This document shows positions 2,196 through 26,436 of a DNA stretch of 64,000 bases, piece after piece. The DNA lies in the NCBI GenBank assembly GCA_963674965.2, contig CAXXFL010000006.1, positions 960,001-1,024,000 of the forward strand, given 5' to 3'. The first letter of the stretch is position 1. Each line of letters begins with the position of its first letter. A program made the translations under genes and the position numbers. The notes under the pieces were generated by a model, which saw nothing but the letters and a program-made list of their open reading frames with translations, ran no database searches and had not been told where the DNA came from. Source of the DNA: a bacterium. GTDB lineage: Bacteria; RBG-13-61-14; DATKZS01.

Positions 2196-2230
2196 GGTTA
2201 TATACCGGCGCAAAAGTAAAAGTGTCGGAA
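2196..2230 (-). promoter_or_regulatory. Phage bipartite motif, copy 1 (upstream of portal)
   Basis: Plus strand ggttatatacc-N15-gtgtcggaa. Confidence 0.75.
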
Positions 2231-2437
2231 AAAAGTGGATGTATAGCCCAAAAAGTTCTCGGAAGGATGTTCAAGGGGGAATGAAACTATTTAATTAGCA
2301 GATGGCTTAATGACAGTTTTACTCTCGGATTTATGGTTTGCACTAAACCTGTCTGCAACTTTATGGAACATGATAACCGAGAATAAAGGTTTCCAGTTAG
2401 ATGCTTAACCGGTATTAAATTTTATCAGTCTTGAGCT

Positions 2438-2500
2438 TTTTTGACAATCAGGCCAGATAAGGCTAATAACATTGATTCTTTAGTTCCTGTTTGTCAAAAA
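2438..2500. promoter_or_regulatory. Inverted repeat in the abiE promoter (candidate AbiEi operator)
   Basis: tttttgacaatcagg (2438-2452) / cctgtttgtcaaaaa (2486-2500), 14/15 complementary; further tttgaca and tgtcaaaa half-sites near 2514 and 2566. Confidence 0.6.
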
Positions 2501-2564
2501 TGACTCCATATTGTTTGACAAATAAGCTATTTAGGATTAAATTTATTAATACCAATTACACGGC

Positions 2565-3392
2565 GTGTCAAAAAATGGATTAATAGAAATGTTAAACGAG
2601 TTTCTGTCTCAGCGCGATGTTTTCACTGTCGATGAGTTCGACCGTTATCTTTCGGAGAATGGTTCGGGCAACTTCAACACCAGAAAATCCCTCTTGAATT
2701 ACTACCGAAAGCAAGGCCGAATAATACCAGTGCGACGAGGTTTGTATGCTGTTGTCCGTCACGGGAACTCTCCAGACTCAAGCCCTGTTGATCCCTTCCT
2801 CTTGGCCTCAAAAATGACCAGGGATGCCGTGCTTGCATACCATACGGCGCTTGAATTCCATGGTAAGGCATACTCGGTTTTTACCAGGCTTCACTACCTC
2901 TCTCGGCACAAATCTCAGCCTCTAAAGTTTCGATCATACGAAATCAAGGGAGTGCCTTTTCCCCGGCCACTAATAGCAACAGGCAAGGAGATGTTCGGGG
3001 TCGAGACTTCCAGTCGTTCCGGAGTTGAAGTGAGAGTGACCGGCCTGGAAAGAACTATGGCCGACGTGCTTGATCGGCCGGAATTGACCGGTTCTTGGGA
3101 GGAGATATGGCGTTCCCTTGAGTCAGTAGAGTTTTTCGATTTGAATCAATTGGTCAAATACGTCGAGTTGCTGGGTAACGCGACGACTGCGGCAAAGGTT
3201 GGATTCTTTCTCGATCAGCACAGGGAATCCCTCATGGTCGAGGAAACGCATCTTGAGCCGTTACGAAAGCTGCTGTCCCGCCAACCTCACTACTTGATAC
3301 GGGGCAAGCGCAAGGGCAGCAAATGGGTCAAAGACTGGAACTTGATGGTCCCCGCTGAAATACTAGATAGAACCTGGAGTGAAGTATTATGA
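2565..3392 (+). CDS. abiEi: Type IV TA antitoxin, AbiEi family transcriptional regulator
   Basis: N-terminal wHTH (GRIIPVRRGLY), LAYHTALEFHG, VRVTGLERTMAD; overlaps the toxin by 4 bp. Confidence 0.85.
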   Translation: MSKNGLIEMLNEFLSQRDVFTVDEFDRYLSENGSGNFNTRKSLLNYYRKQGRIIPVRRGLYAVVRHGNSPDSSPVDPFLLASKMTRDAVLAYHTALEFHGKAYSVFTRLHYLSRHKSQPLKFRSYEIKGVPFPRPLIATGKEMFGVETSSRSGVEVRVTGLERTMADVLDRPELTGSWEEIWRSLESVEFFDLNQLVKYVELLGNATTAAKVGFFLDQHRESLMVEETHLEPLRKLLSRQPHYLIRGKRKGSKWVKDWNLMVPAEILDRTWSEVL

Positions 3393-4363
3393 TCCTTTCC
3401 CAATCAGAGTTGCTCCCCATTGCCGAATCAACGGGCTTCAATGCCAATGTTGTCGAGAAGGTCGTCCACCTAATAAACCTCTTGAACAAGCTGAACTCGC
3501 ATCCATATCTCACCGGTAAGCTGGTCTTAAAAGGTGGGTCCGCGCTGAACCTTTTCATCTTCGATCTGCCCCGATTGTCCGTGGATATCGACCTCAATTA
3601 CGTGGGGGCCATCGAGCGTGAGGCAATGCTCGAGGAGAGGCCGAAGGTGGACCATGCAGTTCAAGCCGTATTTTCAAGGGAGGGGTTCGCGGTCAGGAAA
3701 ATACCCGAGGATCACGCTGGAGGAAAGTATCGATTAAACTACCAGAGCTTTGCCGGACAGTCAGGGAATCTCGAAGTAGACTTGAACTTCATGTTCAGAG
3801 AGCCACTCTTTGAGTTGCAGACTCTCGACTCACGACCTTTGGGCGCCTTTGTCGCGAACCATATTCCCGTCCTTGATGTGCACGAACTGGCAGCCGGAAA
3901 ACTGGCCGCTCTTTTCGCAAGGCGCCAGGCGCGGGATATCTTTGATGCCCACCAAATACTCTGCAACACCGATTTGAACCAAGACCGATTGCGAACGGGA
4001 TTCATCGTTTACGGAGCGCTGAATCGAAAGGACTGGCGGACGATATCTTTGGAAGACGTTGCATTTGATAGCAATGAGTTGGAAAGGATGTTGATCCCGC
4101 TTCTCCATTCCGGTATGGCCGTCGGGGAAGAGGATTTTTCAGAATACGCTAAGCGGCTGGTAAGAGAATGTCAGGACAAGCTGGCGATTGTATTCCCCTT
4201 CAAGGAAAAAGAAACAGAGTTTTTGGATCTCATCCTATCCAAGGGAGAAATAAAACCATCCTTGATAGCATCCGATGACGTTCTACAGAGCAGAATTGCA
4301 AGGCATCCCATGTTACTTTGGAAAGCGATGAATGTACGCAAGCATTTCGGTCTTGATAAGTAG
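3389..4363 (+). CDS. abiEii: Type IV TA toxin, AbiEii nucleotidyltransferase
   Basis: LVLKGGSALN...RLSVDIDL NTase motif; KLAAL..RRQARDIFD. Confidence 0.9.
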   Translation: MILSQSELLPIAESTGFNANVVEKVVHLINLLNKLNSHPYLTGKLVLKGGSALNLFIFDLPRLSVDIDLNYVGAIEREAMLEERPKVDHAVQAVFSREGFAVRKIPEDHAGGKYRLNYQSFAGQSGNLEVDLNFMFREPLFELQTLDSRPLGAFVANHIPVLDVHELAAGKLAALFARRQARDIFDAHQILCNTDLNQDRLRTGFIVYGALNRKDWRTISLEDVAFDSNELERMLIPLLHSGMAVGEEDFSEYAKRLVRECQDKLAIVFPFKEKETEFLDLILSKGEIKPSLIASDDVLQSRIARHPMLLWKAMNVRKHFGLDK

Positions 4364-4385
4364 CTCAAGAAAATTTTCTAAACAC

Positions 4386-5912
4386 TCAGATAAACACCGG
4401 CTCCGTTATCAGCGGAGCCAGTGATACCATTTCCTCTCGTCCCTGCCCAAGGTTACCCTGCTCCCTGGCGAGCACCGCGCAGCGGACCGCGTCGATTATA
4501 TGATCGTTGCCCTTCGAATAGATCACCTTGCCGTCCCGGAGCGTGTAGGTATGGGTCGTGAACTGGTCCTCGATCTCCATGTCATCAGCAGGGAAGATTA
4601 TCTGCTTGCGTTGGAGCCCCCCGTTGATAAGGCTGGTCATCAACTCCTTCGTTCGTTTCTTGACCTCGCGCCCGTCCCGAACCGCCAGGGTGGTCATCCC
4701 GCCGAAGTCGAAGCCGTTCAGCCGTCCCTCAAGCTGGAGAGACTTGTACTTGTCGAGGGTGAGTAGCTCCTGCACTACGGCCAGCCCATTGCCTCCGTTA
4801 TCCACTCCGATCCCGACGGGGGTGAAGTACCGGTCGAGGAGGCCGATAGTCTGGGCTATGTGCGGATAGGTGACATGCTCCATGTGTACGCGCAGGATCA
4901 GCTTTATCACCGAGCGTTCCCCCACCTCCATCTCGCGGAAGACCACGATCTCGGTCGGGTCGTTGGTGTAACCGAGGTCGCCCCCGATCCAGAACATTCC
5001 TGTCTGGGGCATGAGGTTGAGAAGCATCTCCAGCCGGTCGTGGGCCGCCTCCTCGGTCTCGCAGTTCTTGAGCTCGTCGCCGGTGATAACCACCTTCTGG
5101 TATTCCAGGAGTTCCTGGCGGCACAGGTTCAGGTACTCGATGTTGAAAGCTCCATAGGAAGGCTTGCCGTGCTCGCCCGCCACTTCGTGCTGCCAGCCCG
5201 CGCTGTCCTTGCCCCCATAGAACTCGATCAACTCCGCCTCGCGCCGTTCGTTCCAGGCCGGGTTCAGCCACGAGGGCCAGCGGAACACGGTGAACTGCTC
5301 CGAACTCGTTAGACGGTAATAGGTCGTGTTCCGGAGGCCGTTCGGGGTCGAGTAGATGCGGAGCTTGCCCTCGGCCTTGAGACACTGGCGCAGGGCCTTC
5401 CAGGCCTTCTCGGACAGCCACGCCCCTTCGTCCACCCATATCCGGTCAACGTGCAGGGAACGGAACGAATCGCCGTATGCTCCAGCCGGACGGAAATAAA
5501 GGATCGTCCCGTTGGCGAATTCCAACCGGAAGTAAGGCTTCCTGTGAATCTTGGGCTTGCCGTACTTGGTGATGGCCACGCTGTCCATCAGGTCGGAGTT
5601 GGCTTCCAACTGGAACTCGATCTCTTCGATCAAAGTGTCGAGGTGGCCCTGGTGGGGAGCCGCGATTAGTCCCTGGCCGCCCGTGGTGATAAAGGCGAAG
5701 TGCAGCGCGTCGGTGGTGATGTTTACGCTCTTCCCTGCATCCCTTCCGTCAAGGTGGATTACATTCCTGTCCCTGCAGCGCAGGTCCTCCACCTGGTGGG
5801 ACCAGTAATCGCGGGCGGTCCCGTCCCGGTTCTTCAGGTACGCCTGGCCCCACCGGACCGGGTCCAGCAGGGTCTCCGCCAGTTTGCGGTCCCTGGCTTT
5901 CAGCGTTGCCAT
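4386..5912 (-). CDS. Terminase large subunit
   Basis: GRDAGKS (Walker A-like), WVDEG (Walker B), YSTPNG coupling motif, GGDLG..NDPT and NDHIIDA RNase H-like nuclease motifs. Confidence 0.9.
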   Translation of the reverse strand: MATLKARDRKLAETLLDPVRWGQAYLKNRDGTARDYWSHQVEDLRCRDRNVIHLDGRDAGKSVNITTDALHFAFITTGGQGLIAAPHQGHLDTLIEEIEFQLEANSDLMDSVAITKYGKPKIHRKPYFRLEFANGTILYFRPAGAYGDSFRSLHVDRIWVDEGAWLSEKAWKALRQCLKAEGKLRIYSTPNGLRNTTYYRLTSSEQFTVFRWPSWLNPAWNERREAELIEFYGGKDSAGWQHEVAGEHGKPSYGAFNIEYLNLCRQELLEYQKVVITGDELKNCETEEAAHDRLEMLLNLMPQTGMFWIGGDLGYTNDPTEIVVFREMEVGERSVIKLILRVHMEHVTYPHIAQTIGLLDRYFTPVGIGVDNGGNGLAVVQELLTLDKYKSLQLEGRLNGFDFGGMTTLAVRDGREVKKRTKELMTSLINGGLQRKQIIFPADDMEIEDQFTTHTYTLRDGKVIYSKGNDHIIDAVRCAVLAREQGNLGQGREEMVSLAPLITEPVFI

Positions 5913-6049
5913 GGGCTTGTCTCCCGGCCTCCGGCGCTGGTTACATCTTCTTCAGAAAGGCCTTGACTTCCGGCCCAATGGAAGCGTGTATGTGAATGCG
6001 CCGACATGATCGGAAAGCGCGATAAAAGACCAACTGAGAGGAGGCACGC

Positions 6050-6238
6050 ATGAAACGAAAGGATGTCCAGGTCGGACGGACCTACCTGGTCAAGGTATCC
6101 GGAAAACTCGTCCCCGTGAGGCTCGACGCCGAGCATCCCAGTGGGGGCTGGACAGGAACCAACAAGGAAACGCGGAGACAGGTCCGGGTCCGGACCGCCG
6201 CCAGACTGCGGTGTGAATACGCCGCGAACCGTAACTGA
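6050..6238 (+). CDS. Small basic hypothetical protein (62 aa, possibly SH3-like)
   Basis: Strong SD (gaggagg) before the ATG; first gene of the antisense cassette; TTGACT -35-like element near 5963. Confidence 0.65.
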   Translation: MKRKDVQVGRTYLVKVSGKLVPVRLDAEHPSGGWTGTNKETRRQVRVRTAARLRCEYAANRN

Positions 6239-6253
6239 GAAAGGAGAACGATC

Positions 6254-6655
6254 ATGGCAGAAACTCTTCATCAGGCCGCCGAGGCCTACCTGGAACACCT
6301 CAAGTCCCAGGGGAAAAAGGATCGAACAATTTACACCTACGGAAAAGACTTCCAACTCATCGAGGCCCACTTCGGGGCGGACCGGAAGCTCGACACCATC
6401 CTGCCCCAGCACGTGGGAAAGTTCTTCAAGTCCGACGACCTGCTCAAGCTCCCCAGCGGAAAAGAGCGAGCCAGGCCCACCGTTGACAAGACCATGCGAG
6501 TGATGCGCATGTTCCTGGTCTGGGCCAAGGAGACCGGAAGGATCAACAAGCTCCCGCTCCCCAAGGACACGCCCATGGGACACAGCGCCAAGAAGGACCA
6601 GCAGGATGACACAGGAAAGAAACGAAAGACCGCTCAGGCTGCTGCCCAGTCCTGA
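6254..6655 (+). CDS. Stand-alone integrase N-terminal SAM-like (core-binding) domain protein
   Basis: SD aaggag; AAEAYLEHLKSQGKKDRTIYTYGKD...TVDKTMRVMRMFLVWA pattern; no catalytic domain. Confidence 0.7.
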   Translation: MAETLHQAAEAYLEHLKSQGKKDRTIYTYGKDFQLIEAHFGADRKLDTILPQHVGKFFKSDDLLKLPSGKERARPTVDKTMRVMRMFLVWAKETGRINKLPLPKDTPMGHSAKKDQQDDTGKKRKTAQAAAQS

Positions 6656-7553: not shown

Positions 7554-7564
7554 GCGCCCGGCCT

Positions 7565-7927: not shown

Positions 7928-8447
7928 CTTTTTTGCGTTTTCGTTTTTTGGCGGGCTTGTCCTTGCCGTCTTTCTTCTCGTCCGCCAGCGTCTTGACCAA
8001 CTTGCTCGCCCATTCAGCGGGGGTGGCGGCCCGCTTCGAGGCGGGATCGGTCTCGCGGGTGATCTTGGTGGTCTTCAAATCCTTGAGGTGACAGCGGATC
8101 ATCCGGTCCAGCCGCTCGGCCGCGTCCCAGTTGCCCTCTTCCTGCGCCCGACTCAGCTTGATGAAGTAAACCGCCACCAGCTCCACCTGCATGAAGTCCG
8201 AGCTCTTGTTGAACACAAAGTCCTTGTAAAGCTGCGCAATGATCTTGTCGAAGATCTTCTTCTCGTCTTCGGCCAGGAAGCGGCTCGCGTAAATGCCGTG
8301 GTTGATGCTATTGAGGTTGCCCTCGGGCGCGCTACGGCCTCGCCCTCGCACCTTCTCGTTGCGGACCCACTTGTCCAGTTCCACCTCGTCGCTCTTGCAA
8401 AGCGTCTTGTCCTGGTCATTGTCTTTCTGTTCATTCATGCTTGTCAT
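7917..8447 (-). CDS. Probable terminase small subunit
   Basis: APEGNLNSINHGIY matches the GNxNAxKHG motif of many TerS proteins; upstream of terL on the same strand. Confidence 0.6.
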   Translation of the reverse strand: MTSMNEQKDNDQDKTLCKSDEVELDKWVRNEKVRGRGRSAPEGNLNSINHGIYASRFLAEDEKKIFDKIIAQLYKDFVFNKSSDFMQVELVAVYFIKLSRAQEEGNWDAAERLDRMIRCHLKDLKTTKITRETDPASKRAATPAEWASKLVKTLADEKKDGKDKPAKKRKRKKDGG

Positions 8448-8814
8448 TTTCGATTTCTTGGTCCGATGCCTCCGACTCGGGCGGGAAATCCGAATTTAGC
8501 GGATTTCCCTCACCGCTTTCTGGCGCGCCTTCTACTGGATTACATACCGGAAACGAATCGAAAGTGTCGGAACTTTTTTCATCGGACCGCTCCTTTTTTA
8601 GAATCTGGTGGACCCGGCGGGGAGAAATTCCGGCCAGCCGCGCGATCTTCTTGACGGGCACGCCCTCGTCCTTGAGGGCCAGCACGAGCTTCTTGCGCTC
8701 GGCATAGAACATCTTGCTGCTCGGCACCCAGAGCAGGCCGGTGAAGTGGGATTGCACCGCCTCGACCAGGTCGGGCGGCAGCACGGCATGAGCGCAGGCA
8801 TAGCGTTTTTTCAT
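8431..8814 (-). CDS. HTH protein, Mor/CD3324-like activator
   Basis: YACAHAVLPPDLVEAVQSHFTGLLWVP plus HTH (VKKIARLAGISPRRVHQIL); ATG at 8814 overlaps the upstream stop. Confidence 0.65.
   Translation of the reverse strand: MKKRYACAHAVLPPDLVEAVQSHFTGLLWVPSSKMFYAERKKLVLALKDEGVPVKKIARLAGISPRRVHQILKKERSDEKSSDTFDSFPVCNPVEGAPESGEGNPLNSDFPPESEASDQEIENDKHE
8537..8572 (-). promoter_or_regulatory. Phage bipartite motif, copy 2 (upstream of terS-like gene)
   Basis: Plus strand ggattacatacc-N15-gtgtcggaa. Confidence 0.75.
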
Positions 8815-9608
8815 GGGGTCTCCTTGCCTGGCTTCTTGAGCCACGGCTGGGCGACGTGCGGGTTATAGAAGCGCAGTCGGCTCTCGCGGGGACCGGGGAC
8901 GATGATCTCGATGGACTGGCGGGTGACCTCGCCGATTTGCCTTTCGCTCTCCAGAAAGCAGACCAGGCCGTAATCCTCGCCGCAGGGGAATTTGAATTTG
9001 TCTCGGTTCTGGTAGAGGGTGGGTTCGGTCCAGTCGAGGGCCAGAGCTTGGTCCTTGATGGCATCGACCTTCCCCACGGCCTCGGGGGAGACGCGGTGGG
9101 TGAACCTGAAGTTCCCGTTGGCCGGGAAGAGGTGTTCGGGTATCGGCTCGACCGGGGCCATCTTCGCTTCCTGCTTGTCCAGGTCGCCAGCCTTCCAGGG
9201 AACGGGAGGAGAGTAAGCCTGGGCGTCCAGCCGGTTGATGGCCTCTTGTATCTGGCCTTCGCCGAAATTCTTCATCGCCCATTCGTGAATGGGCATGAAC
9301 TTACCACGCAAGTCCTCATAGGCGGCCTTGGCAAGTCTCCCCGAGTCGCATGCTTTTTTCGCCAGCATGATCTTGGAGCGGAGCCAGGCATAGTATTCGG
9401 GATCGAGGCGGCGGAAACAGAGGTCATCGTAAGTGACGTCGCGGGCGTAAAGCTGGAGCTTATCGGTCTCCCAGGTTTTGAGCGTGGGGGAAACGTAAAG
9501 GGCCGGCTGTTGAATCGAGTCGATGGGTTTATCCGATGGGCAGGGACTTATTGGTGTGGCTTCGGTGTCGGCGTTTGAATATTCCTGCATGTGTCGGAGC
9601 AGGCTCAT
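8811..9608 (-). CDS. Hypothetical phage protein
   Basis: Long ORF; SD aaggag before the ATG at 9608. Confidence 0.7.
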   Translation of the reverse strand: MSLLRHMQEYSNADTEATPISPCPSDKPIDSIQQPALYVSPTLKTWETDKLQLYARDVTYDDLCFRRLDPEYYAWLRSKIMLAKKACDSGRLAKAAYEDLRGKFMPIHEWAMKNFGEGQIQEAINRLDAQAYSPPVPWKAGDLDKQEAKMAPVEPIPEHLFPANGNFRFTHRVSPEAVGKVDAIKDQALALDWTEPTLYQNRDKFKFPCGEDYGLVCFLESERQIGEVTRQSIEIIVPGPRESRLRFYNPHVAQPWLKKPGKETP

Positions 9609-9645
9609 GGTTCGCTTCTCCTTGCTTGAGATTTGGGGTCCATAA

Positions 9646-9680
9646 GGATACATACTGGAACGCGAGTAAAAGTGTCGGAA
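9646..9680 (-). promoter_or_regulatory. Phage bipartite motif, copy 3
   Basis: Plus strand ggatacatact-N15-gtgtcggaa. Confidence 0.72.
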
Positions 9681-9704
9681 GTTTTTTGAAAAAAAGTTCG
9701 CGGT

Positions 9705-10022
9705 GGTGAAAGGGTGAAAGGTTCGGATGGGTCAAAAGGACCTTTCACCATGACCTTTCACCACACCTAACCATTCAATTTCAATAAATAAATAATAAAA
9801 TATGGTGAAAGGGTGAAAGGTATAGATAGATATGTCTATTAATGGACAAAAAATAAAAGCTACCATACCCTCTACATGGCCCCCCACCCATATTTTTTTT
9901 CTTAAACATGGAGAGTGACCTCTGGGAACCTTTCACCCTTTCACCATGCGGGGTAACCATTTGGATTTTCATTCCTTTTTCAGAGTGAAAGGTTCGCCGT
10001 GGTGAAAGGGTACCCTTTCACC
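9705..10022. repeat. Iteron array around an AT-rich core; probable phage replication origin
   Basis: GGTGAAAG at 9705, 9713, 9804, 9812, 10001; its reverse complement CTTTCACC at 9742, 9755, 9930, 9938, 10015; one variant at 9984; AT-rich tract about 9775-9860; directly downstream of the primase-helicase gene. Confidence 0.75.
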
Positions 10023-10052
10023 CAATGGGCTGAACGGAAAAAAAGAAGCCGG

Positions 10053-17380: not shown

Positions 17381-18421
17381 TCAAAATGCCGGGGCGCAAT
17401 CGCTGGCCGCCTGGTCCCGGTCAATGGATTGGTTGGCCTCGACCAGTTCCTCGTGAGGAATGACCTTCTGGTAGAGGTTGTCGATTACGTTGGGATTACC
17501 GTTCGAACTGCAAAGGGGGAAGTAGGCGCACGGTCTCCGGTAATGAAAACAGAACGCGGTGTTCTGATAGAAGACCTCGCGGCGGCGCGCGTCGAGCAGC
17601 GCCTGGGAGAGTTCCCACAACTCGGAGCGTAAGGTTTCGAACTGGTCGCGGGAAAGATAGAGCATCTCGCGATGGAACATTCCCGGCTCGGTGTACTTGG
17701 CGGCCAGCCGTTCCTGGAAGTCATCGTCGCTCTCCGGCATCTTGCGCTTGGCGCTGCTCTTGCCGGTCTTGGACTTGGCGATCAACTCCGCCCGCCGCGC
17801 TTCGAACTCGGTTTCCGTCTCGCCCTTGCCCTGCTGGAGCCTGGCCTTGACCAGGATGTTGTAGATGACTCCGGAGATCTTGACCCCGAGCGCCTGCTCC
17901 ACGTACCAGGTGTAGAGGATGATCTGGAAGTCGGTCCACAACCTCTCAAGGTAATCGGCGTCCAGTTGCGAGGCGGTCTTGTGCTCGAGCAGGAAGTTTT
18001 CATCGCCGATTCGGACAATGCCGTCCACCTTGCCCGCCAGGGTGAAGCTTCTCGATGAGGCCCCCGTGGCGGGGTTTATGATCTTCCCTTCGAAAGGCTG
18101 TTCGAGGGCGACCACTTCGAATTCCTCATCCGGGTACCGGGCCGCGTAAGCCTTCATCATCGCGGCCGCCAGGTGCCATTCCCGAAGCTCATTGTCATCC
18201 TGGGTCCGGTTAGGGTAGGAGCGGTCGATGTATTCGAGCACCGCGGCGAGGTCCCGTCCCCGATGCCAGAGCTCGAGGCACTCATGAATGATCGATCCGA
18301 AGCTGAGGTTCCTGTCCTTCTCCAGCGGCACGAGTTCCTTGATGTAACGCCACTCGAAGGCTTTGCGGCAGTTGCGGAACATGGACCACATCGAATAGGT
18401 GGTGATCATCTGGCCGCTCAT
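17381..18421 (-). CDS. PD-(D/E)XK nuclease (RecB/Cas4-like)
   Basis: N-terminal C (NCRK), GKVDGIV...LEHKT, Q..LY, C-terminal CFHYRRPCAYFPLC Fe-S-type cysteines. Confidence 0.85.
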   Translation of the reverse strand: MSGQMITTYSMWSMFRNCRKAFEWRYIKELVPLEKDRNLSFGSIIHECLELWHRGRDLAAVLEYIDRSYPNRTQDDNELREWHLAAAMMKAYAARYPDEEFEVVALEQPFEGKIINPATGASSRSFTLAGKVDGIVRIGDENFLLEHKTASQLDADYLERLWTDFQIILYTWYVEQALGVKISGVIYNILVKARLQQGKGETETEFEARRAELIAKSKTGKSSAKRKMPESDDDFQERLAAKYTEPGMFHREMLYLSRDQFETLRSELWELSQALLDARRREVFYQNTAFCFHYRRPCAYFPLCSSNGNPNVIDNLYQKVIPHEELVEANQSIDRDQAASDCAPAF

Positions 18422-18735
18422 ACCGCCGCCTCCATGGGCTGGCGGGGTTCCTCCCGTGGCTCTCGGGCAAGCGTACGCTCGACCTTGAACGCCTCTTCCC
18501 CGAATTGCCGGGTGATAAAACCGGTGAAAATTTTGGCGATGTTCCTGCCGACCTCGGTGCCCGCGTCGATTACGCATGAGCGCTTTTTCAGGTCCAATCT
18601 GAATTTCGCGTCCAGCCTGATCAGGGACCGACCATGCATGCACTCGGCGGCGAGAGCCGACAACATCAGAGAGTCCTCCACGTCCTCGAGCGCCACCTCG
18701 GGATAAAACTTGTAATGGTAAACTTGCGAATTCAT
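18418..18735 (-). CDS. Hypothetical phage protein
   Basis: SD aggagg before the ATG at 18735; ATGA overlap with the next gene. Confidence 0.7.
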   Translation of the reverse strand: MNSQVYHYKFYPEVALEDVEDSLMLSALAAECMHGRSLIRLDAKFRLDLKKRSCVIDAGTEVGRNIAKIFTGFITRQFGEEAFKVERTLAREPREEPRQPMEAAV

Positions 18736-18819
18736 TTTTTGCCTCCTTTCATGGCCGTGGGCCATGGTCCTTTTCGCTCCGGCTTTTATTCCGAGAGCGT
18801 TTTGCGAGGCGCCTCTGCG

Positions 18820-18855
18820 GGATATATACCGGCGCAAAAAGAAAAGTGTCGAAAA
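18820..18855 (-). promoter_or_regulatory. Phage bipartite motif, copy 4 (upstream of the recombination/replication operon)
   Basis: Plus strand ggatatatacc-N15-gtgtcgaaaa. Confidence 0.75.
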
Positions 18856-18866
18856 AATGTCTCCTT

Positions 18867-19451
18867 TCAGAGATAATTTTTCAGGCCGGCCTCGTCGAAG
18901 ATTTCCCTAACCTTCCGGATAGCCTCGTAAATCGTGCTTCGGGGCATGCCCAACTCGGAAGAGATATCGGATACCGTCTGAGTCTTAAGCCGCTCGCACA
19001 GGTCACGAAAATTCTCCGGCAGTCGTTCCAGCGTTCTCTCGACGTCCATGACCATCTCGCGATGGTCCTCGGGAGATCGGTCCGCCAGGCCAACGCTCAG
19101 TAGGTACTCTTCCTCGCTGACGCGCTCTCGCCATTGGGTCGGCCTTTCGCAATCTGGATCATTCGAGTCCAATGAAAAGGCGCGCATTCGCCAATCTCGT
19201 TTCCCGGCCTTACTCGCCGCGATGATAGAGGCGACCCGGCGGTTTACGATTCGACTGATAAAGGTGTTTCGCTTAGCGACGGCGGCGTCGTATTTGGGCA
19301 GGCGCATGAGCAGGCAGAGAGCCAGGTCCTGCTCGACGTCTTCCCGGTCCGCCCTTCGGAACCCTGGCTGATTTATCAGTTGCCAGGACTTGACCTGAAT
19401 TAAATTCACCGCGTACTCCTCGATTCCGGGGTATTTATTCCTTGTTCCCAT
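18867..19451 (-). CDS. Phage-encoded sigma-70 family (ECF-like) sigma factor
   Basis: Region 2 (DREDVEQDL...YD...TFISRIV) and region 4 HTH (LERLPENFR...TVSDISSELGMPRSTIYEAIRK). Confidence 0.85.
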   Translation of the reverse strand: MGTRNKYPGIEEYAVNLIQVKSWQLINQPGFRRADREDVEQDLALCLLMRLPKYDAAVAKRNTFISRIVNRRVASIIAASKAGKRDWRMRAFSLDSNDPDCERPTQWRERVSEEEYLLSVGLADRSPEDHREMVMDVERTLERLPENFRDLCERLKTQTVSDISSELGMPRSTIYEAIRKVREIFDEAGLKNYL

Positions 19452-19600
19452 CTGGTCCTCCTCGCGGCCGAGGAGGAAGCCATGTGGGTGTCATCCATTG
19501 CCGGGCCGCCGTCTTAGAACGGATCGTCGCGAGTTCGCCGGTTTGGCGACACCCACAACGACCTCCGCTCAACGGCCAGTCGGTTGTCTGGTGGTTAATG
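19452..19600 (-). ncRNA. Candidate structured 5' leader of the sigma gene
   Basis: Perfect 10-bp helix 19483-19492/19548-19557 extended by G-U pairs; competing 9-bp hairpin 19456-19477 covers the SD. Confidence 0.55.
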
Positions 19601-19615
19601 TTCAGGGCTACTGAT

Positions 19616-19948
19616 TCAGCGCCCGACCGAATCCTCTATTTCCATGGAGAAGGGAAGGCCCGCCTGAACCTCCAGTAGGATGATGGTCCCGTCGTGCAGA
19701 TCGAATATGTGGTCTAACAAACGGCTGACCTTTTCCTTGAGCGGGAAGTCTTTTGCACTGTCCTGGCGGCGCGGGCCATTGTCGGCCCCGAGCTTGATCT
19801 TGCGGACCACCCTGGGCGGCGGATCGAAAACCGGCTCCCCCTCCGCGATCACGAGTCCCTCGATGCGCCCGTAATTGATCTCCGACATGAGATCGACCAG
19901 CTTCCGGCTGGAAGCGCCCAGTGAAAATTTCGTTGCCTGGTTTTTCAT
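19616..19948 (-). CDS. Hypothetical protein upstream of the sigma gene
   Basis: 110 aa ORF co-oriented with sigma; SD-like gaagg. Confidence 0.7.
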   Translation of the reverse strand: MKNQATKFSLGASSRKLVDLMSEINYGRIEGLVIAEGEPVFDPPPRVVRKIKLGADNGPRRQDSAKDFPLKEKVSRLLDHIFDLHDGTIILLEVQAGLPFSMEIEDSVGR

Positions 19949-19971
19949 TCCTTCAACCCTCCATTTACTTT

Positions 19972-20165
19972 GTGAAATCTCCGGGGCGAATCCCGGCGCT
20001 CGGATTTTTCCGAGCCTTTGCCCCTTATTGGGGAAATTTCACCGGGAGGGTTGAAAAAGTGACGCCGGGACGGGCTAAAACGACGCAACCCCCTGGATTA
20101 CAGGGGGTTTACGTGAAGGAAAAAATTTTAAATTTTCATTAAGGCCCCGGTGAAATTTCACCGGG
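19972..20165. promoter_or_regulatory. Cluster of palindromic operator-like sites
   Basis: Perfect 20-bp palindrome CCCGGTGAAATTTCACCGGG at 20146-20165; degenerate copies at 20030-20046 and 19972-19986; hairpins at 19998-20015 and 20087-20109. Confidence 0.6.
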
Positions 20166-20182
20166 AATGGCGGGTATTACTT

Positions 20183-21238
20183 TTATTCCGGTTCGATGGT
20201 AAAGCGAGCGCGCCATCCCTTGGCATTCTCGTCATAAATGAAGGGATCGCCCTTGATCCGGAAAAAATCGTATAAGTTAGAGGCCAGGCTGCTCTTGCGT
20301 CTTTTTAAATTCGGGTCGGCCTTGGGACTTCGCCAGGTAATCACGCCTCGCTCCTCGGCGAAGTCCTGAAGTAGCTTCCACTGCACGGTGGGTTCGCCGT
20401 TCTTGGCGCTGGCCATGCCCATCTGGGTATAGTTGAATATTCCTCTTTCCGACTTGACCCTGACCGCGACCTTGTGCCCGTCAACGAACCTGACGCTCAC
20501 GTTCTCCCAGCTCGAGCCGGGCGGGGTCGAGAAAAACGTCATGGAGGATTGGTCGTCGAAAGCCGGAACGTGGAGGTCTTTGAATTTTGATAAAAGGGTC
20601 TCCAGCGGAGGATGGGCGATGAGCATGCCGCCTTCAATATTAATGAAGTTCTCAAGCGCGAGCAGGCAACAACCTCGTCGATTCACCATGTCCATTACCG
20701 TGGGATTGACTAAATCTCGCGTGGGGACCAAAACGATTATGGGAGAATCGAGCGTCGCGATCAGGGTCGCCATGGCCATCTGAAGCTCGTACGGATCGAA
20801 CTGTATGCAAAGAAACACGGGAAACTCGTACCCCGCCAAGGGGGAATAAGTCCCCAGTCGGAAGGTCATGTACGAATCCCTCAGCTTCTCGAACTCCGGC
20901 TCAATGCCCAGCGCCGAGGCCAGGGCCGTTCCCAAAAGTGACTGGTTGACCTCGAATATCACCCTGTCCGATTTTGCGACCGGAAAGGTATCGCAGCGCT
21001 GAGGCTCGCATTGGCAAACGGCCACCGCGTGATCCGGCGAATGCTCGACCACGTAATGCGCGCATCCGCAATCATGCTCGGCGGGGCAGGGAACCGATTG
21101 GGCCAGGGCCCCGCTGGGCCGGAGGAACCCGGCCATGGGTTCGTATTCCGGCCCAAGGAGCTTCTCCCAGGCGCGGGTTACCTCCGCGAGACCGATGACG
21201 GACTCAAGAGACCGCCACCAGCGCTTTAGCGTCGTCAT
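20183..21238 (-). CDS. Hypothetical protein with Cys-rich N-terminus and possible C-terminal winged helix
   Basis: CPAEHDCGC...CQCEPQRC; C-terminal QWKLLQDFA...KRRKSSLASNL...GWRARF resembles a wHTH. Confidence 0.65.
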   Translation of the reverse strand: MTTLKRWWRSLESVIGLAEVTRAWEKLLGPEYEPMAGFLRPSGALAQSVPCPAEHDCGCAHYVVEHSPDHAVAVCQCEPQRCDTFPVAKSDRVIFEVNQSLLGTALASALGIEPEFEKLRDSYMTFRLGTYSPLAGYEFPVFLCIQFDPYELQMAMATLIATLDSPIIVLVPTRDLVNPTVMDMVNRRGCCLLALENFINIEGGMLIAHPPLETLLSKFKDLHVPAFDDQSSMTFFSTPPGSSWENVSVRFVDGHKVAVRVKSERGIFNYTQMGMASAKNGEPTVQWKLLQDFAEERGVITWRSPKADPNLKRRKSSLASNLYDFFRIKGDPFIYDENAKGWRARFTIEPE

Positions 21239-22388
21239 GCGCGCCCTCCGCGACGATGAATCCTCTTTTCTTGAGCCAATCCTCGACGATCGCGCCGTCG
21301 TCGTCCCTGGTGTATTGAGCCACGTTGGAGGGACGGATGGTTACTATGCGGGGAGGGCCGCCGTCGGTGAATTTAACCTGGAAGGTGGCGCGAGCCACGC
21401 GGGCCCGGGGAGGGATGACCCGGCGGCTCATGGCCAGGGCCGCGAAAAGGTCGTCGGCCTTCCTGATCTCGACCTCGCGCATCGGGCCGCCCCAGTAATA
21501 ATGGATTTCCCTGAGCTTCACCCACTCCATGCCGGCGACGTCCGTGCAAGCCGTCGAGGCCTCGCCGTCCACGAGGAGAGGAAGCAGCGAGTATTTGGCC
21601 TCCCCCGGGAAAAACGACTCGTCCCCAAAAAGGTGAAGACCGAACTTGACGCGATACATGCGCCTCTCGGCCTTGGTCCCCGCGTTGATCCTGACCTCCC
21701 CCAGGGCCGGATTGTAAATCAACAGGTCGTGCTTCTCCGGCCGAAAAAAAACCGACGACGACGAGCCATCCTCAACGCAGCCCTCGCGCCGGAAAGGATC
21801 GCCGTGACGAACGAAGAACCAGACCTCATCGGCGTGACAATGAACGATCACCTTGCAGCACCGGCCCCTGCCGCTCTGCTCGAACCAGTTGTCCAGGTCG
21901 CGCTCCAGATTGTCAAGGACCTCCCTGGAAGGCTCCTCGAACTCCGGGACCGGCGTCCGGTCGGTCTGATAGTATTCAAAGGAGCGCCGGCGAAGGCCGA
22001 GCCTCTCAGCGTGCCTGGTCTCGAGCGCCTCCGGGCATTTGAGCCACGCCTGGACCGCGACGTCGGCGGGCGTCGCGCCATGGCCGTCAATGGCTATGCC
22101 CCGGCTCTCCATCTCCGCCAGCAGATCGTTCATGATCTCGGGAGTCGAAGTCTCGTGCACCATGTAAAGAGCGTTGGCCAGGTCCCTTGGCGTGTCCGGA
22201 CCCGGACTCATGAACACGCCGGCCAGTCCCTCGTAATCGATCCCGCCGTCCGAGCAAGCGGGCGGCAGCGCGACTCCCCGCATGGCCAGGTAATCCTCGT
22301 GTGGACCGAGCAGGGCCAGAAGGCGCTCGCCGCTAATCGTCTTTAAAGCGTCCGGATTCGAAAACCTCCGAAGATTGAATATCGCCAT
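21204..22388 (-). CDS. Hypothetical protein, overlapping the next gene
   Basis: About 394 aa ORF downstream of the lexA-like gene; no motif recognised. Confidence 0.7.
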   Translation of the reverse strand: MAIFNLRRFSNPDALKTISGERLLALLGPHEDYLAMRGVALPPACSDGGIDYEGLAGVFMSPGPDTPRDLANALYMVHETSTPEIMNDLLAEMESRGIAIDGHGATPADVAVQAWLKCPEALETRHAERLGLRRRSFEYYQTDRTPVPEFEEPSREVLDNLERDLDNWFEQSGRGRCCKVIVHCHADEVWFFVRHGDPFRREGCVEDGSSSSVFFRPEKHDLLIYNPALGEVRINAGTKAERRMYRVKFGLHLFGDESFFPGEAKYSLLPLLVDGEASTACTDVAGMEWVKLREIHYYWGGPMREVEIRKADDLFAALAMSRRVIPPRARVARATFQVKFTDGGPPRIVTIRPSNVAQYTRDDDGAIVEDWLKKRGFIVAEGAHDDAKALVAVS

Positions 22389-22517
22389 TTCCCACACCCC
22401 CTTCTGAAATTGGAAAAAGTCCTCCCTTATGGGCGCGACCGACGACCCATGGGAGATTCTCGATCAGGAGTGGATTAAACTCGTCGGCGCCCCCTGGCGG
22501 AGGGGAATTGACGACTG

Positions 22518-23168
22518 TCAATCCTTGGCTTGCCTGATCGCCACTACTTTGCCGAGAATGCGCAGATCGTCATCTGGGCCGATGGGAATCGGTTGGTACT
22601 TGGGATTCTCCGGACGGAGTTCAATGCGAGCGTCACGAACGTAGAGCCTTTTCACGGTCGCTTCATCATCAAGAAGAGCCACGACTATATCCCCGCTCTC
22701 AGCCACCGGCTGTTGGCGGACGATGACGAGATCGCCTTCATTGATACCGGCGTCGGTCATGCTGTCCCCGGAAACGGAAAGCGCGAAACAGCGGCCCGAC
22801 CGCGCGGCCTTGTCGTCAATTAAAATTTCACCCGTGACGTTTTCCACGGCCAGGATCGGTACTCCCGCCGCGACCTTGCCCACTATGGGAACCGAGACAA
22901 GCTCGGTAAGCCGGCTGTCGGGCTCGCGCAAAACGGTCAAACCGCGCGCCTTGCCCGGCTCGCGCTTTAAATAGCCCTTCCTGATCAGTTGGTTGATCTG
23001 GGCGTGCGCGCTCATCTGAGAGATGCCGAGAATCTCCGAGAGTTCCTTGATCGAGGGAGGAAAGCCCTTGCGAACGATGAAATCGCCTATCTCCGAAAGC
23101 GTGTTCCGCTGCGGCTCCGTGATTTCATCCGTCGGGCGTCTGCCCCGGGGTTTTGGCTTTTTTTTCAT
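22518..23168 (-). CDS. lexA: LexA-type repressor (prophage-encoded)
   Basis: wHTH (GFPPSIKELSEILG), VAAG cleavage site, GDSM catalytic Ser, TVKRL catalytic Lys. Confidence 0.9.
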   Translation of the reverse strand: MKKKPKPRGRRPTDEITEPQRNTLSEIGDFIVRKGFPPSIKELSEILGISQMSAHAQINQLIRKGYLKREPGKARGLTVLREPDSRLTELVSVPIVGKVAAGVPILAVENVTGEILIDDKAARSGRCFALSVSGDSMTDAGINEGDLVIVRQQPVAESGDIVVALLDDEATVKRLYVRDARIELRPENPKYQPIPIGPDDDLRILGKVVAIRQAKD

Positions 23169-23238
23169 CAGAATCGTTCTTCGCGATTTAATTAGGAGGC
23201 GGTTGTTCCTCCAACCGTCTCCAGCCAAGAGTGGCCAT

Positions 23239-23266
23239 ATAATAGCACTTATGTACATAAGGTCAA
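23239..23266 (-). promoter_or_regulatory. Sigma70 promoter of the lexA operon with a palindromic operator in the spacer
   Basis: TTGACC-N16-TATTAT with an extended -10 TG; perfect palindrome CTTATGTACATAAG at 23248-23261. Confidence 0.65.
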
Positions 23267-23426
23267 TAGTAAAATTTGATCAATTTTAAAAGTCATTTAA
23301 TATCAACGCGATAGAATGATCGTTTTGCATCATTCTCTATTCGAGTGAAAGATTTTGGCGATAAGTTCGACCTTTCATCCGTATGAATATGGTCAAGTTA
23401 GGTTCATACCGGAAAACGCATCCGTG

Positions 23427-23960
23427 CTACCGGCGTGACAGGCGCTCTATCTTCATCGCTTCCCACTCTTCTCTTTGCCGGTTCCAATGGGGGATCGCGG
23501 TGATCGGCCGCAGGTTCTGCTCGCGGATCGGATCACGGCCTCTGACCGTTCGGGGCAGGAAGAGGATTTCCTCCTGGATGTCGGGGGCGAGGTTGGTGAG
23601 GTTCATGATCTGGGTGACGCGGGCCCGGGTGACGTAGCCAAGGCGGGCGAGATCGGCGTAGTCGCGGACCTCGCCGCGGGCGAGCATGCCTTCGAACTTG
23701 ATGGCCAGGGCCATGAGGCGGGTGACGCGGGGGATGTTACCGGAAGCGACGTCGTGACTTGAGGCGGATTCGGGAGCGGGAGCGTCGGCGCCGGAACTGG
23801 CCCGAGCATTGCGGGGAGTAAACGTGAACTCAACGTCGACCTTGTCCACTCCATCTCCCGCCGATTTATGATTGCCAATTTTCATTTCCTTGATTAACCT
23901 CCCGTCAATCTCTTTTTTTTCATTTTCCCACTCCGCCTCTGGCGAGTTCCTTGATCCCAA
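23427..23960 (-). CDS. Recombinase-associated HTH protein
   Basis: PRVTRLMALA...YADLARLGYVTRARVTQIMNLTNLAPDIQEEIL; start uncertain (23885 possible). Confidence 0.7.
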   Translation of the reverse strand: MGSRNSPEAEWENEKKEIDGRLIKEMKIGNHKSAGDGVDKVDVEFTFTPRNARASSGADAPAPESASSHDVASGNIPRVTRLMALAIKFEGMLARGEVRDYADLARLGYVTRARVTQIMNLTNLAPDIQEEILFLPRTVRGRDPIREQNLRPITAIPHWNRQREEWEAMKIERLSRR

Positions 23961-25545
23961 GGGACCTGAAGCTGATGGTCACCTTGCCGGTGGAGCCGTC
24001 GTAGCCAACCTTGTCGAGCAGGAGATGAAGTATCCTGGACTGCTCGCTTGAGTTCAGGGACTCCCAGACCGGGTCAAAGACGGCCAGGGCCCTGACCAGG
24101 TCGCCGGAATCGAGGGTATCGCGCTCGACGGCGATAAGTTCCTCGCGCAGTTGGGTCATCCTTTGCTCGGCGCTCCTGATTATGTCCTGAAGATCGGCGA
24201 GCCTGGCGGTGTCCAGCGATTGATTGTCCCGGCCCAGGTTCATGTCGCTCACCAGATTTTTAAGTTTGGAATGCATCCGCTTGAGCTCCTTCTCCCCAGC
24301 GAGACGCTCGCGGTCAAGCTCTTGCCGCCGCTTCTCGCTCAGTTCACGGAATTGCCTCACGGTCTCAGCGACCAGCCTCTCGTCCGTGCCCAGCCCCCTG
24401 ATATGTTCGACTACGGCCCTTTCGATTTCATGGGCGTTAAGCGACTTGGAGGGACACGAGTCCCAGCCGCGCTGTTGCGCGTTCATGCAGACGTAGTAGC
24501 GGTAACGACGGTGGCCTCCCTTCTTTATCGTGTACGTGTGCATCATGGGTTTGCCGCAGGGCACGCAGTGGATAAGGCCCTTGAGGAGAGCGCCGTGCTT
24601 GTTTCGCAAGCCGGCGTTTTTACCCTGGCCGTTCTTTTTCAAAAGCTCTTGCGCCTCGCGCCAAATCTCCGGAGCGACGATAGCTTCATGCTCGCCGTCG
24701 TAAACCGTCCCCTGGAAATAAATTTTGCCGGTGTAGACGATATTGGTGAGCAGGCTGTAGAGATAATGCTTGGCAAAGGGCTTACCGCCGCGCGCCTTGC
24801 CCTTTTTGGTAATCCACCGCTTGGTCTTCCAACCCCGCTCGTTAAGCTCATTGACCACGGGGATAAGGCCTCGACGCTCCAGATATAAATCGAAAATCTC
24901 GCGCACCCGCGCGGCCTCTCGTTTGTTCACGACGATGCGGCCGCCTTTCTCGTCCAGGTCATAGCCCAGTATCAGCATGCCGCCGATCCACTTGCCCTTT
25001 TTACGGGCGGCCGACATCTTGTCCCGCGTTCGCTCGGAGATGATCTCGCGCTCGAACTGGGCGAAGGAGAGGAGCATGTTGAGGGTGAGGCGCCCCATGG
25101 AGTCGGTGGTCGAGAACTTCTGGGTGACCGAGACGAAGGAGACGTCGTGCTCTTCAAATATCTCCATGAGGCGGCTGAAGTCTATAAGCGATCGAGAGAG
25201 CCGGTCCACCTTGTAGACGACCACCACGTCAATCTTGCCGGCCTCGACGTCGGCCATCAAACGCTTGAGAGCGGGCCGATCCATGTTGCCGCCGGAGAAG
25301 CCGCCGTCGTCGTAAAGGTCAGGCAAGCACGCCCAGCCTTCGTGCTTCATGCTGGAGACGTAGTCTTCAGCCGATTCCCTCTGGGCGTCCAGACTGTTGA
25401 AGTCCAGGTCGAGACCCTCCTCCGTGGACTTGCGCGTGTAGATGGCGCATCGCGCCTTGCCGTTGTTTTTGGGCACGTCGCTGTCAAAAGCTCCCGTCTT
25501 TCTCGGCCGCCTCCGCGTGTTAATGTTCAAATCCCCTCCTTTCAT
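23920..25545 (-). CDS. Large serine recombinase (resolvase + recombinase + Zn ribbon + coiled coil)
   Basis: AIYTRKST catalytic Ser, KVDRLSRS, FAQFERE; CVPCG...YYVC...C zinc ribbon. Confidence 0.92.
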   Translation of the reverse strand: MKGGDLNINTRRRPRKTGAFDSDVPKNNGKARCAIYTRKSTEEGLDLDFNSLDAQRESAEDYVSSMKHEGWACLPDLYDDGGFSGGNMDRPALKRLMADVEAGKIDVVVVYKVDRLSRSLIDFSRLMEIFEEHDVSFVSVTQKFSTTDSMGRLTLNMLLSFAQFEREIISERTRDKMSAARKKGKWIGGMLILGYDLDEKGGRIVVNKREAARVREIFDLYLERRGLIPVVNELNERGWKTKRWITKKGKARGGKPFAKHYLYSLLTNIVYTGKIYFQGTVYDGEHEAIVAPEIWREAQELLKKNGQGKNAGLRNKHGALLKGLIHCVPCGKPMMHTYTIKKGGHRRYRYYVCMNAQQRGWDSCPSKSLNAHEIERAVVEHIRGLGTDERLVAETVRQFRELSEKRRQELDRERLAGEKELKRMHSKLKNLVSDMNLGRDNQSLDTARLADLQDIIRSAEQRMTQLREELIAVERDTLDSGDLVRALAVFDPVWESLNSSEQSRILHLLLDKVGYDGSTGKVTISFRSLGIKELARGGVGK

Positions 25546-26072
25546 GCCTGATTATTATTCTCATCAGCCTTGTTGATTTTCTTCTTGCCTCCAAGCCCGA
25601 AGAAGGTGTAGCCGTTCCAATTGACCCCCGTAATCTCACGGGCGACACCGGAGAGCGACTTGTAACGCCGGTCCTCATACTCGAACCCCTGGTCGAGCAC
25701 CTTTATCGTATGGGTCTTGCCCCGAAACTCGCGGACAAGGTAGGAGCCGGGCAGGGGAATTAGATGCTGAATGGAGTCGTCAACTTTGGCGATTACGGCG
25801 GGGGTAGATTGTCCATCGACTCCAGCTCTAGAAGTCTTGGGGGCCCTCACGCGGAGATCGGCGTCGTTGGCGATCTCCAGCGCTCTTCGCCTAGCGCGCT
25901 CCGAGAGTCCTCCCTCGGCCAGGGACTGGATGCGCCAGGCGATCTTCTTGCACAGATAGTCCTTGTGGCCGGAACGCGCCCGCTCGCCGAAAACCTCATA
26001 GTACTTCACCTTCAGCTGGGCAACGTTCATCTTCCGTAGCTTCTGGATTTCCAGATAGCTTTCCACGCTCAT
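25542..26072 (-). CDS. DUF2924 family protein
   Basis: IAWRIQ...GGLS; PGSYLVREFRG; YKSLSGVAREITG..WNGYTFFGL; overlaps the recombinase by 4 bp. Confidence 0.85.
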   Translation of the reverse strand: MSVESYLEIQKLRKMNVAQLKVKYYEVFGERARSGHKDYLCKKIAWRIQSLAEGGLSERARRRALEIANDADLRVRAPKTSRAGVDGQSTPAVIAKVDDSIQHLIPLPGSYLVREFRGKTHTIKVLDQGFEYEDRRYKSLSGVAREITGVNWNGYTFFGLGGKKKINKADENNNQA

Positions 26073-26102
26073 TCCAAACCTCCTCTTATATTCTCAAGTC
26101 CG

Positions 26103-26330
26103 TTAACTCGGTTCGGAATGATTGCTTCGGTTACGGGGACAGTCAAGGCGATTCTCGGTTAACGCGGTGCAATTCTCCGCGTCCCCCACGTCGCCGGAAC
26201 GCTTGCTTCCATCAAGACCCTGGCTCCTCGTTTTCACGAAGCGCGTGTACCCGCGGGCCAGGATGGAAGCGATCTCCACGAGGACTTGCTCGGCGCTCGA
26301 TCGATCGTCGTTGTGGTTGTGGTATTCCAT
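26103..26330 (-). CDS. Small hypothetical protein, first gene of the recombinase module
   Basis: SD ggaggag before the ATG at 26330; EIASILARGYTR helix. Confidence 0.55.
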   Translation of the reverse strand: MEYHNHNDDRSSAEQVLVEIASILARGYTRFVKTRSQGLDGSKRSGDVGDAENCTALTENRLDCPRNRSNHSEPS

Positions 26331-26400
26331 TTTCTCCTCCTCTGCTTTCGTGCCCACAACGGTTTCCGCTTGGCGGCCGCCCCGCTGTCCGGTGGCTTAG

Positions 26401-26436
26401 GGATATATACCCGCGAAATGTTAAAAGTGTCGAAAA
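26401..26436 (-). promoter_or_regulatory. Phage bipartite motif, copy 5 (upstream of the recombinase module)
   Basis: Plus strand ggatatatacc-N15-gtgtcgaaaa. Confidence 0.75.

Follow-up and report, generated by a model that had tools for sequence, protein, structure and literature searches.

Phage sigma factors with promoter sets of their own are already known. The system described here is a prophage of about 65 kb that carries a divergent sigma-like gene and several copies of a bipartite promoter-like motif; its closest described counterpart is most likely Salmonella phage 7-11, and, judged by the comparisons below, the motif itself is most likely undescribed. According to the accessible part of the report on 7-11, the sigma factor gp47 has eight mapped promoters with a bipartite consensus, which lie upstream of late genes at positions shared with phage phiEco32, and both gp47 and the phiEco32 protein gp36 are phage sigma-like subunits that redirect the host core RNA polymerase (PMC8948821). 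The DNA analysed in this study, hereafter the window, is a 64-kb stretch (C6:960001–1024000) of a bacterial 6.5 Mb assembly with 58% G+C, and the prophage extends from about C6:920.6k to about position 26.5k of the window.

As far as the accessible part of that report describes 7-11 and phiEco32, the prophage resembles them in encoding a sigma-like subunit and in carrying bipartite promoter-like sites of fixed spacing, seven in this case, at conserved positions. The sigma gene lies inside the phage genome, and the multiple bipartite copies stand ahead of gene blocks at positions that are kept in relatives. As described there, 7-11 and phiEco32 are virulent coliphages with experimentally mapped promoters, whereas the element studied here is a temperate, integrated, myovirus-like phage whose sites are known from sequence alone. 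Compared with 7-11 as described there, the consensus and the sigma family are different ones (gp47 and gp36 were compared by description, not by sequence), the sites also head recombinase and replication blocks and not late genes only, and the sigma gene is accompanied by a conserved partner gene and a leader, in a cassette that is also found in islands that are not phages.

Promoters of extracytoplasmic function (ECF) sigma factors typically have an AAC-type −35 element followed by T's and a CGT-type −10 element, and the motif found here resembles that layout. The putative phage sigma factor is similar to cellular ECF (group 4) sigma factors, such as Rhodobacter SigE (2q1z), Mycobacterium SigH and AlgU, in having two domains (sigma-2 and sigma-4), a length of about 190 amino acids (aa) and a tightly spaced bipartite promoter. 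Unlike these, it is very divergent, scoring below the curated family thresholds, and no membrane anti-sigma gene adjoins it; instead, there is a 110-aa gene for a cytoplasmic-looking partner, and a structured leader. Besides, it does not appear to be autoregulated in this phage; its first predicted target promoter follows the gene and does not precede it. A literature search, with subscription journals outside its coverage, turned up neither an account of this motif nor one of an Acidobacteria prophage run by a sigma factor.

The original prediction had named five minus-strand copies of the motif, with exactly 15 nt between CGACAC and RGTAT, upstream of the first genes of modules. All five were recovered exactly (P_A to P_E; Table 1). 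The pattern CGACACTTT-N12-RGTATRTA gave five matches without mismatch in the window, all on the minus strand and with the 15-nt gap at every site, and none of 100 dinucleotide-preserving shuffles of the window yielded any match. Permitting two mismatches did not reveal a sixth site within the 64 kb. Aligned to each other, the five copies share a T-rich run, TTYCCGACACTTT, N11 and CCGGTAT(A/G)TA, followed by a C-rich and then, 6–8 nt on, a purine-rich patch; the core common to the whole family is CCGAC-N17-GGTA-N-R-T. All window copies are co-oriented with the following gene and lie 40–93 nt ahead of its start codon, and P_B begins 15 nt past the stop codon of the sigma gene. The set of five proved incomplete, because the window cuts the element: two further copies (P_F and P_G) were found to the left of the window, so that seven motif copies head seven gene blocks of the prophage.

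Table 1. Motif copies and associated features of the prophage. Positions refer to the window unless given for contig C6; distances run from the end of the motif to the start codon of the next gene, gene starts being heuristic calls.
Feature	Position	Strand	Distance to next start	Description	Orthologous copies
P_A	26404..26432	−	46 nt (GTG at 26357) or 73 nt (ATG at 26330)	Exact match; followed by small gene (75–84 aa), DUF2924, large serine recombinase, phrog_14161 protein, LexA-like protein, two unknowns	G015, G016, G004 (contig C16)
LexA-like protein	22518..23258	−		LexA DNA-binding domain and S24 peptidase (Pfam)	
Control region (putative)	20025..20165	−		Upstream of 110-aa/sigma pair; two GGTGAAATTTCACC-type palindromes, at 20149 and 20030	
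110-aa gene (P0028)	19616..19948	−		Directly upstream of sigma gene; single-copy in genome; with leader and sigma gene forms block without motif, behind terminator-like hairpin	
Leader	19452..19615	−		164-nt spacer between 110-aa gene and sigma gene; conserved, non-coding	
Sigma gene (P0001)	18867..19451	−		194-aa divergent ECF-type sigma (predicted); single-copy in genome	
P_B	18823..18851	−	87 nt (ATG at 18735)	Exact match; followed by 105-aa gene, PD-(D/E)XK nuclease, AAA_24, DUF669, ERCC4, RecD-like helicase, primase	P_B-like copy directly behind sigma stop codon in G015 and G016
P_C	9649..9677	−	40 nt (ATG at 9608)	Exact match; followed by 265-aa gene and small helix-turn-helix gene	G004, G015, G016
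P_D	8541..8569	−	93 nt (ATG at 8447)	Exact match; followed by terS, 120-aa gene, 507-aa gene, terL	G015, G016
AbiEi/AbiEii pair	2565–4363	+		Toxin-antitoxin-type pair inserted between terL and portal gene on opposite strand; no motif; P_E just downstream	
P_E	2199..2227	−	71 nt (GTG at 2127)	Exact match; followed by portal gene, 1523-aa head-morphogenesis fusion protein; block also includes diversity-generating retroelement	G015, G016; absent in G004
Diversity-generating retroelement	C6:952327–955138			Reverse transcriptase, Avd protein, adjoining 437-aa protein	
P_F	C6:951976			Exact match; followed by 1291-aa DNA methyltransferase, major capsid protein, sheath, tube, tape measure	
P_G	C6:935548			Exact match; followed by tail protein, baseplate, fibre-like proteins	

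Across the genome assembly the same pattern had nine exact copies, one copy at two mismatches and ten at three mismatches, and the pattern read backwards had no exact site in 6.5 Mb. Seven of the nine exact copies are those of the prophage, and the other two precede pairs of DUF2924 and serine recombinase genes in a second mobile element. This is the enrichment in the prophage and near absence from the host that had been expected of a whole-genome scan. When the spacer between two boxes (CGACA and GTATRTA) was left free between 14 and 19 nt, 12 hits were obtained in the genome, 11 of them spaced by exactly 17 nt (the same register as the N17 of the CGAC...GGTA core) and all 11 located in mobile elements; the twelfth, with a spacer of 15 nt, looks like a chance hit. 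A loose core, CGAC-N17-GGTA-N-R-T, gave 20 hits, 10 in mobile elements and 10 outside, compared to nine for the reversed control, and for a stricter core all eight hits were inside mobile elements (one for the control). Since core hits outside mobile elements are at chance level, nothing points to a regulon of the host. When the nine sites were used to train a position weight matrix, it recovered only these sites, with nothing scoring between 18 and 54 bits.

Neither the motif nor the sigma family was found in 11 of 12 genomes of the host's class, and these 11 lack the phage. The twelfth (G004) contains a closely related prophage with five motif copies, in which no sigma gene was found. This apparent counter-example, motif without sigma, was set aside because the assembly is interrupted in the spacer that separates the 110-aa gene from the sigma gene: contig C16 continues for just 156 nt beyond the 110-aa gene, the sequence resumes on contig C135 within the nuclease gene, and the sigma gene falls into the gap between them. 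Two further genomes (G015 and G016) carry syntenic prophages, whose proteins are 34–86% identical to those of the window, with the motif at the same seven positions and one further copy ahead of a baseplate wedge gene. The module containing sigma and the replication genes is inverted in G016, and the motif copies there follow the gene orientation. Alignment of the seven orthologous positions with G004, G015 and G016 (syntenic, proteins 34–95% identical) showed that both boxes stand out as conserved stretches, whereas the intergenic DNA around them has diverged. Related sequences of this kind are not independent, so that counts overstate the number of separate events.

A scan of species-representative genomes detected at least 111 stretches with the motif, mostly singletons, where our own arithmetic gives a chance expectation of around a few hundred for 596 Gb. 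Among the matches listed, the motif clusters in four records, each of which contains a sigma homologue at 35–46% identity. The clusters in G013 and G014 are not phages but islands, about 18 kb long, that encode a P4-type tyrosine integrase, and they share with the prophage only the sigma gene and the 110-aa gene (plus a 410-aa gene in G013). Each island has four to six motif copies, one of them ahead of the 110-aa/sigma pair. The second box reads mostly GGTAAGTA in G016 and GGTATGTA in G013–G015. In the islands of G014 (C1:4460001–4480000) and G013, the motif also recurs as part of a repeated unit that further comprises a 152-nt leader and a gene of about 185–282 aa.

Sigma homologues with 29–73% identity are encoded by 77 distinct IMG/VR loci, which were examined over ±10 kb around the sigma gene (1.06 Mb in all). 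The core CGAC-N17-GGTA-N-R-T occurred at 117 sites in these loci compared to three for the reversed control, and 109 of the 117 were on the strand of the sigma gene. At least one core copy was present in 60 of the 77 loci and two or more in 40, and most of the 77 have a copy directly behind the sigma stop codon. Freeing the spacer to 12–23 nt gave 103 sites at 17 nt and at most one at each of the 11 other lengths.

The label of the 194-aa protein as a sigma factor, part of the original prediction, did not follow from Pfam domains of the protein alone (see below), but it stood by PHROG, by family profile and by fold. The protein matched PHROG 1740, ‘RNA polymerase sigma factor’, at E 3e-15. Among 5.8 billion proteins, 27 family members were found at E<=1e-5, of which 11 have a precomputed PF04542 (Sigma70_r2) match, and the homologue in G014 matched PF04542 at E 7e-5 (23 bits vs a cutoff of 24). 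A profile of 23 family members aligned to ECF SigE (2q1z) over region 2 and region 4 at E 5e-7, the second aligned stretch corresponding to residues 131–180. The AlphaFold model consists of two helical bundles joined by a disordered linker of low confidence, and the top 16 Foldseek matches were all two-domain (group 3/4) alternative sigma factors, nearly all of the ECF type. A protein of 194 aa made up of two bundles and a linker has no room for regions 1.1 or 3. Both parts that define an ECF (group 4) factor, a sigma-2 domain (regions 2.1–2.4) and a sigma-4 domain with a helix-turn-helix, were thus recognised, and no paralogue was found elsewhere in the genome by tblastn or with the family profile. 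By profile and predicted fold, the 194-aa protein is a divergent ECF-type sigma factor outside any named ECF group.

The motif is probably the promoter class of this prophage-encoded sigma factor, as had been proposed. What was observed directly is the motif, which is confined to mobile DNA, keeps one spacing and orientation and is retained at orthologous places, together with the sigma-like protein and the association with the sigma gene, with which the motif travels between elements; all of this supports the proposal. That the protein binds core polymerase and initiates at the motif sites, and with what trigger and timing, we infer from this pattern.

Several observations weigh against this interpretation. 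A search of sequencing runs for this stretch of DNA turned up two DNA runs, both from one study, and no RNA run. On the protein side, Pfam found no sigma domain at E<=0.01 in the window sigma alone, only helix-turn-helix hits (residues 153–190); the match to TIGR02937 (E 7e-6, 25.7 bits vs a cutoff of 42.9) did not reach the score of the curated family; the confidence of the model was middling (pLDDT 70, pTM 0.40); and the Foldseek TM-scores were low (0.25–0.32), as expected because the two domains are mobile. On the DNA side, 17 of the 77 viral loci lacked a core match, several of these 17 having near-miss versions after the sigma stop codon, and the four motif copies in elements without a sigma gene require action in trans. 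Homologous prophages had been expected to show covariation of the motif with sigma regions 2 and 4. They kept the motif at the same seven positions within diverged flanks, but no clean covariation of the −35 extension with sigma-4 residues was found: extensions differ by clade (ACTTT, GCAT, GGTC, AGTY, GTTT and ACAT), and near-identical recognition helices accompany different extensions. Finally, the comparative data do not fully separate the sigma factor from the 110-aa protein as the reader of the motif, because the latter co-occurs with it almost as faithfully.

For this reason the 110-aa protein is a serious alternative among the possible readers of the motif, although on balance an unlikely one. 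In that case the sites would still be promoters, and specificity would be conferred by the 110-aa protein, either alone as an activator of the host holoenzyme or as an obligate partner of sigma. In 60 of 81 sources its gene immediately precedes the sigma gene; the genome has just one copy of it, and the otherwise unrelated islands of G013 and G014 have it in common. Against this role, 13 sources have the core motif without a detectable 110-aa homologue. A divergent homologue could have escaped tblastn, but truncation does not explain the absence, since the sequence that precedes the sigma gene exceeds 2 kb in 11 of the 13. Profile searches with the 110-aa protein gave no family hit and no recognisable DNA-binding domain, and a bipartite layout with fixed spacing is what sigma domains 4 and 2 read. 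A predicted complex of sigma and the 110-aa protein scored 0.00 and gave no verdict.

Reading of the sites by a host factor, either the housekeeping sigma factor with an unusual −35 element or a host ECF sigma factor, with other targets for the phage sigma, is improbable. Such a reading could draw on the resemblance of CCGACA and TATATA to the housekeeping hexamers (four of six letters each, at 18-nt spacing) and on the four motif copies in elements that lack the sigma gene. However, the genome scans revealed no host-chromosome sites beyond chance, and relatives without the phage have none. The would-be −10 hexamer (TATATA/TATGTA) has A at position 6 in place of the conserved T, and a sigma-70 scan of positions 18000–27500 reported 11 sigma-70-like sites, none of them at 18823–18851 or 26404–26432, the two motif copies inside the scanned region. 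A host sigma factor is an unlikely reader because host sites are absent and the last −10 letter is A. Besides, the motif follows the phage sigma into G013, G014 and G016 (Acidobacteriota or Terriglobia), into G015 and into 60 of the 77 viral contigs.

Least probable is that the motif is not a promoter but a repressor, partition or packaging-protein binding site, or a recombination site copied around the element: spacers are alike among the copies of one element (G013/G014, G015), as copying would give, but the strict strand bias tracks gene orientation even in the inverted modules of G016, every copy lies a short way ahead of a start codon, the two conserved boxes are held at a constant distance by a spacer of variable sequence, and the motif lacks the dyad symmetry that most repressor operators show.

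The small helix-turn-helix protein encoded after P_C was also considered as a reader of the motif and was rejected: it is confined to four closely related prophages, and therefore it cannot explain the motif elsewhere. The original prediction had placed a Mor-like activator here, a label that did not hold, as the protein matched HTH_23 (E 2e-5) and no Mor family at E<=1. Three overlapping reading frames cover positions 8431–9608 on the minus strand. The conserved helix-turn-helix protein is in the frame at 8431–8844, which reads through P_D in this prophage and stops at or before the motif in G015 and G016; ORF 8579–9064 (161 aa), a candidate for the same gene, had no family hit and was discarded.

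With the phage sigma as the probable reader of the motif, the following course of events is proposed. The sigma gene lies in a small cassette with the 110-aa gene and a structured leader, with no motif copy in front. In the lysogen, a LexA-like repressor and the leader may hold sigma off. Once made, probably after loss of the LexA-like repressor, sigma would bind the host core RNA polymerase, and the holoenzyme would fire seven co-oriented promoters, one per block: recombinase; recombination and replication; the 265-aa and helix-turn-helix genes; terS–terL; portal and head; methyltransferase, capsid and tail; baseplate and fibres. The predicted regulon had been described as excision, replication and packaging. 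Those blocks are indeed headed by the motif, but the head, tail and baseplate blocks are as well. CCGAC(AC) would serve as the −35 element for sigma domain 4 and GGTAT(A/G)TA as the −10 element for domain 2, with transcription presumably starting at the purine-rich patch 6–8 nt downstream.

In 26 diverse sources, both phages and islands, the leader in the sigma cassette, about 160–215 nt long, was more strongly conserved than the proteins encoded on either side. GTGGGTGYCG and CGRCACCCAC can pair in a long-range helix, and the Shine-Dalgarno sequence of sigma is covered by a hairpin. In the alignment 92.6% of the cells were paired compared to 35–53% with slid partners, and eight pairs were changed on both sides. 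Rfam contained no family for the leader (positions 19300–20250 scanned), which is a candidate new regulatory RNA; a sub-threshold match to isrK at 19924–20015 (21 bits vs 50) was treated as chance. Upstream of the 110-aa/sigma pair, the region with the two palindromes (Table 1) also contains the terminator-like hairpin (20109–20087) and a weak sigma-70-like match, and may be a control region of the pair. Four half-site-like repeats (GGTGAAAGG) in inverted arrangement are present at 9700–9750, upstream of P_C, and these and the GGTGAAATTTCACC-type palindromes could be operators of one repressor. The LexA-like protein is a candidate SOS-cleavable prophage repressor, on the basis of its domains.

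Transcription of the prophage is almost wholly on the minus strand, and its genes for portal, terminase, capsid, sheath, tube, tape-measure and baseplate proteins (Pfam/PHROG) are those of a myovirus-like phage. The G004 prophage has neither the AbiEi/AbiEii insertion nor the P_E copy. The portal leader (2140–2185, minus strand) can form a hairpin, GCCACA...TGTGGC, which is kept in G004, G015 and G016, although G004 has no promoter copy there. Just beyond the right end of the prophage lies a host tRNA-Asn gene (26715–26790), and the surrounding region (26689–26863, minus strand) contains a perfect TTGACA-16-TATAAT promoter and a terminator.

Helper-phage activators are known to act on other elements, as in the P2/P4 system, where Ogr of the helper trans-activates the late promoters of the satellite. 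RinA-type activators act at the terS promoters of staphylococcal phages, according to the accessible part of the report (PMC3152322). A comparable arrangement may exist for the second mobile element of the host genome. The two exact motif copies outside the prophage, at C6:818919 and C2:35302, precede the DUF2924/serine-recombinase pairs in two copies of this element that are 93–99% identical (C6:~805–823k and C2), one of which is broken by an insertion sequence. Between them, the two copies of the element have two exact and two variant motif copies, and they contain no member of the sigma family or of the 110-aa family. The element encodes serine recombinases, ParB-like proteins, a ligase-AAA fusion, an HTH-M78 regulator, a PIN protein and a RhuM-like protein; none of 11 scanned proteins matched a PHROG structural family, and there were no virion genes among them. 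Behind a variant motif, CCGACAGATAA...CCGGTATATA, lies a 175-aa gene whose product is a chimeric TerS: over its last 126 residues it matches the prophage terS product at 95% identity, and its first 50 are unrelated. The gene that follows is 92% identical to the 120-aa gene of the prophage, and a stretch of 724 bp is common to both elements, with 93.6% identity.

This element has recombinases of its own and a terS related to that of the prophage, as a satellite would, but it is mosaic, ridden with insertion sequences and without defined ends. It is a candidate satellite that redirects the packaging of a helper and listens to the helper's sigma, an interpretation towards which we lean less than halfway given the mosaic structure. 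As in the P2/P4 and RinA systems, insofar as the available part of the RinA report allows the comparison, a helper-type promoter precedes the recombinase genes and the chimeric terS of an element that itself lacks the sigma gene. What the element and the prophage would have in common is a sigma-specific promoter and not an activator site as described for those systems, with the satellite status remaining that of a candidate.

A broader scheme can be put forward only tentatively, and we consider it somewhat doubtful. The 110-aa gene, the structured leader, the ECF-like sigma and the CCGAC-N17-GGTA promoters may form a portable, self-contained transcription cassette that has been adopted by unrelated mobile elements of soil bacteria, i.e., by myovirus prophages with a serine recombinase and by islands of about 18 kb with a P4-type integrase. 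An RNA switch that hides the ribosome-binding site would gate sigma. Elements without sigma would eavesdrop, and the satellite-like one would have placed its recombinase operon and chimeric terS under the prophage sigma, so that induction of the helper would drive its excision and packaging.

For a rare sigma family, represented by 27 relatives in a set of 5.8 billion proteins and by about 100 viral contigs, the results define a promoter consensus and predict a regulon. ECF sigma/promoter pairs serve as orthogonal switches, and the pair proposed here, being compact and tied to a sharply defined spacing of 17 nt, lends itself to direct testing. The sigma-less element, if correctly interpreted, would exemplify a satellite keyed to the sigma factor of its helper. 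For a group of environmental temperate phages, the whole lytic programme would become readable from sequence.

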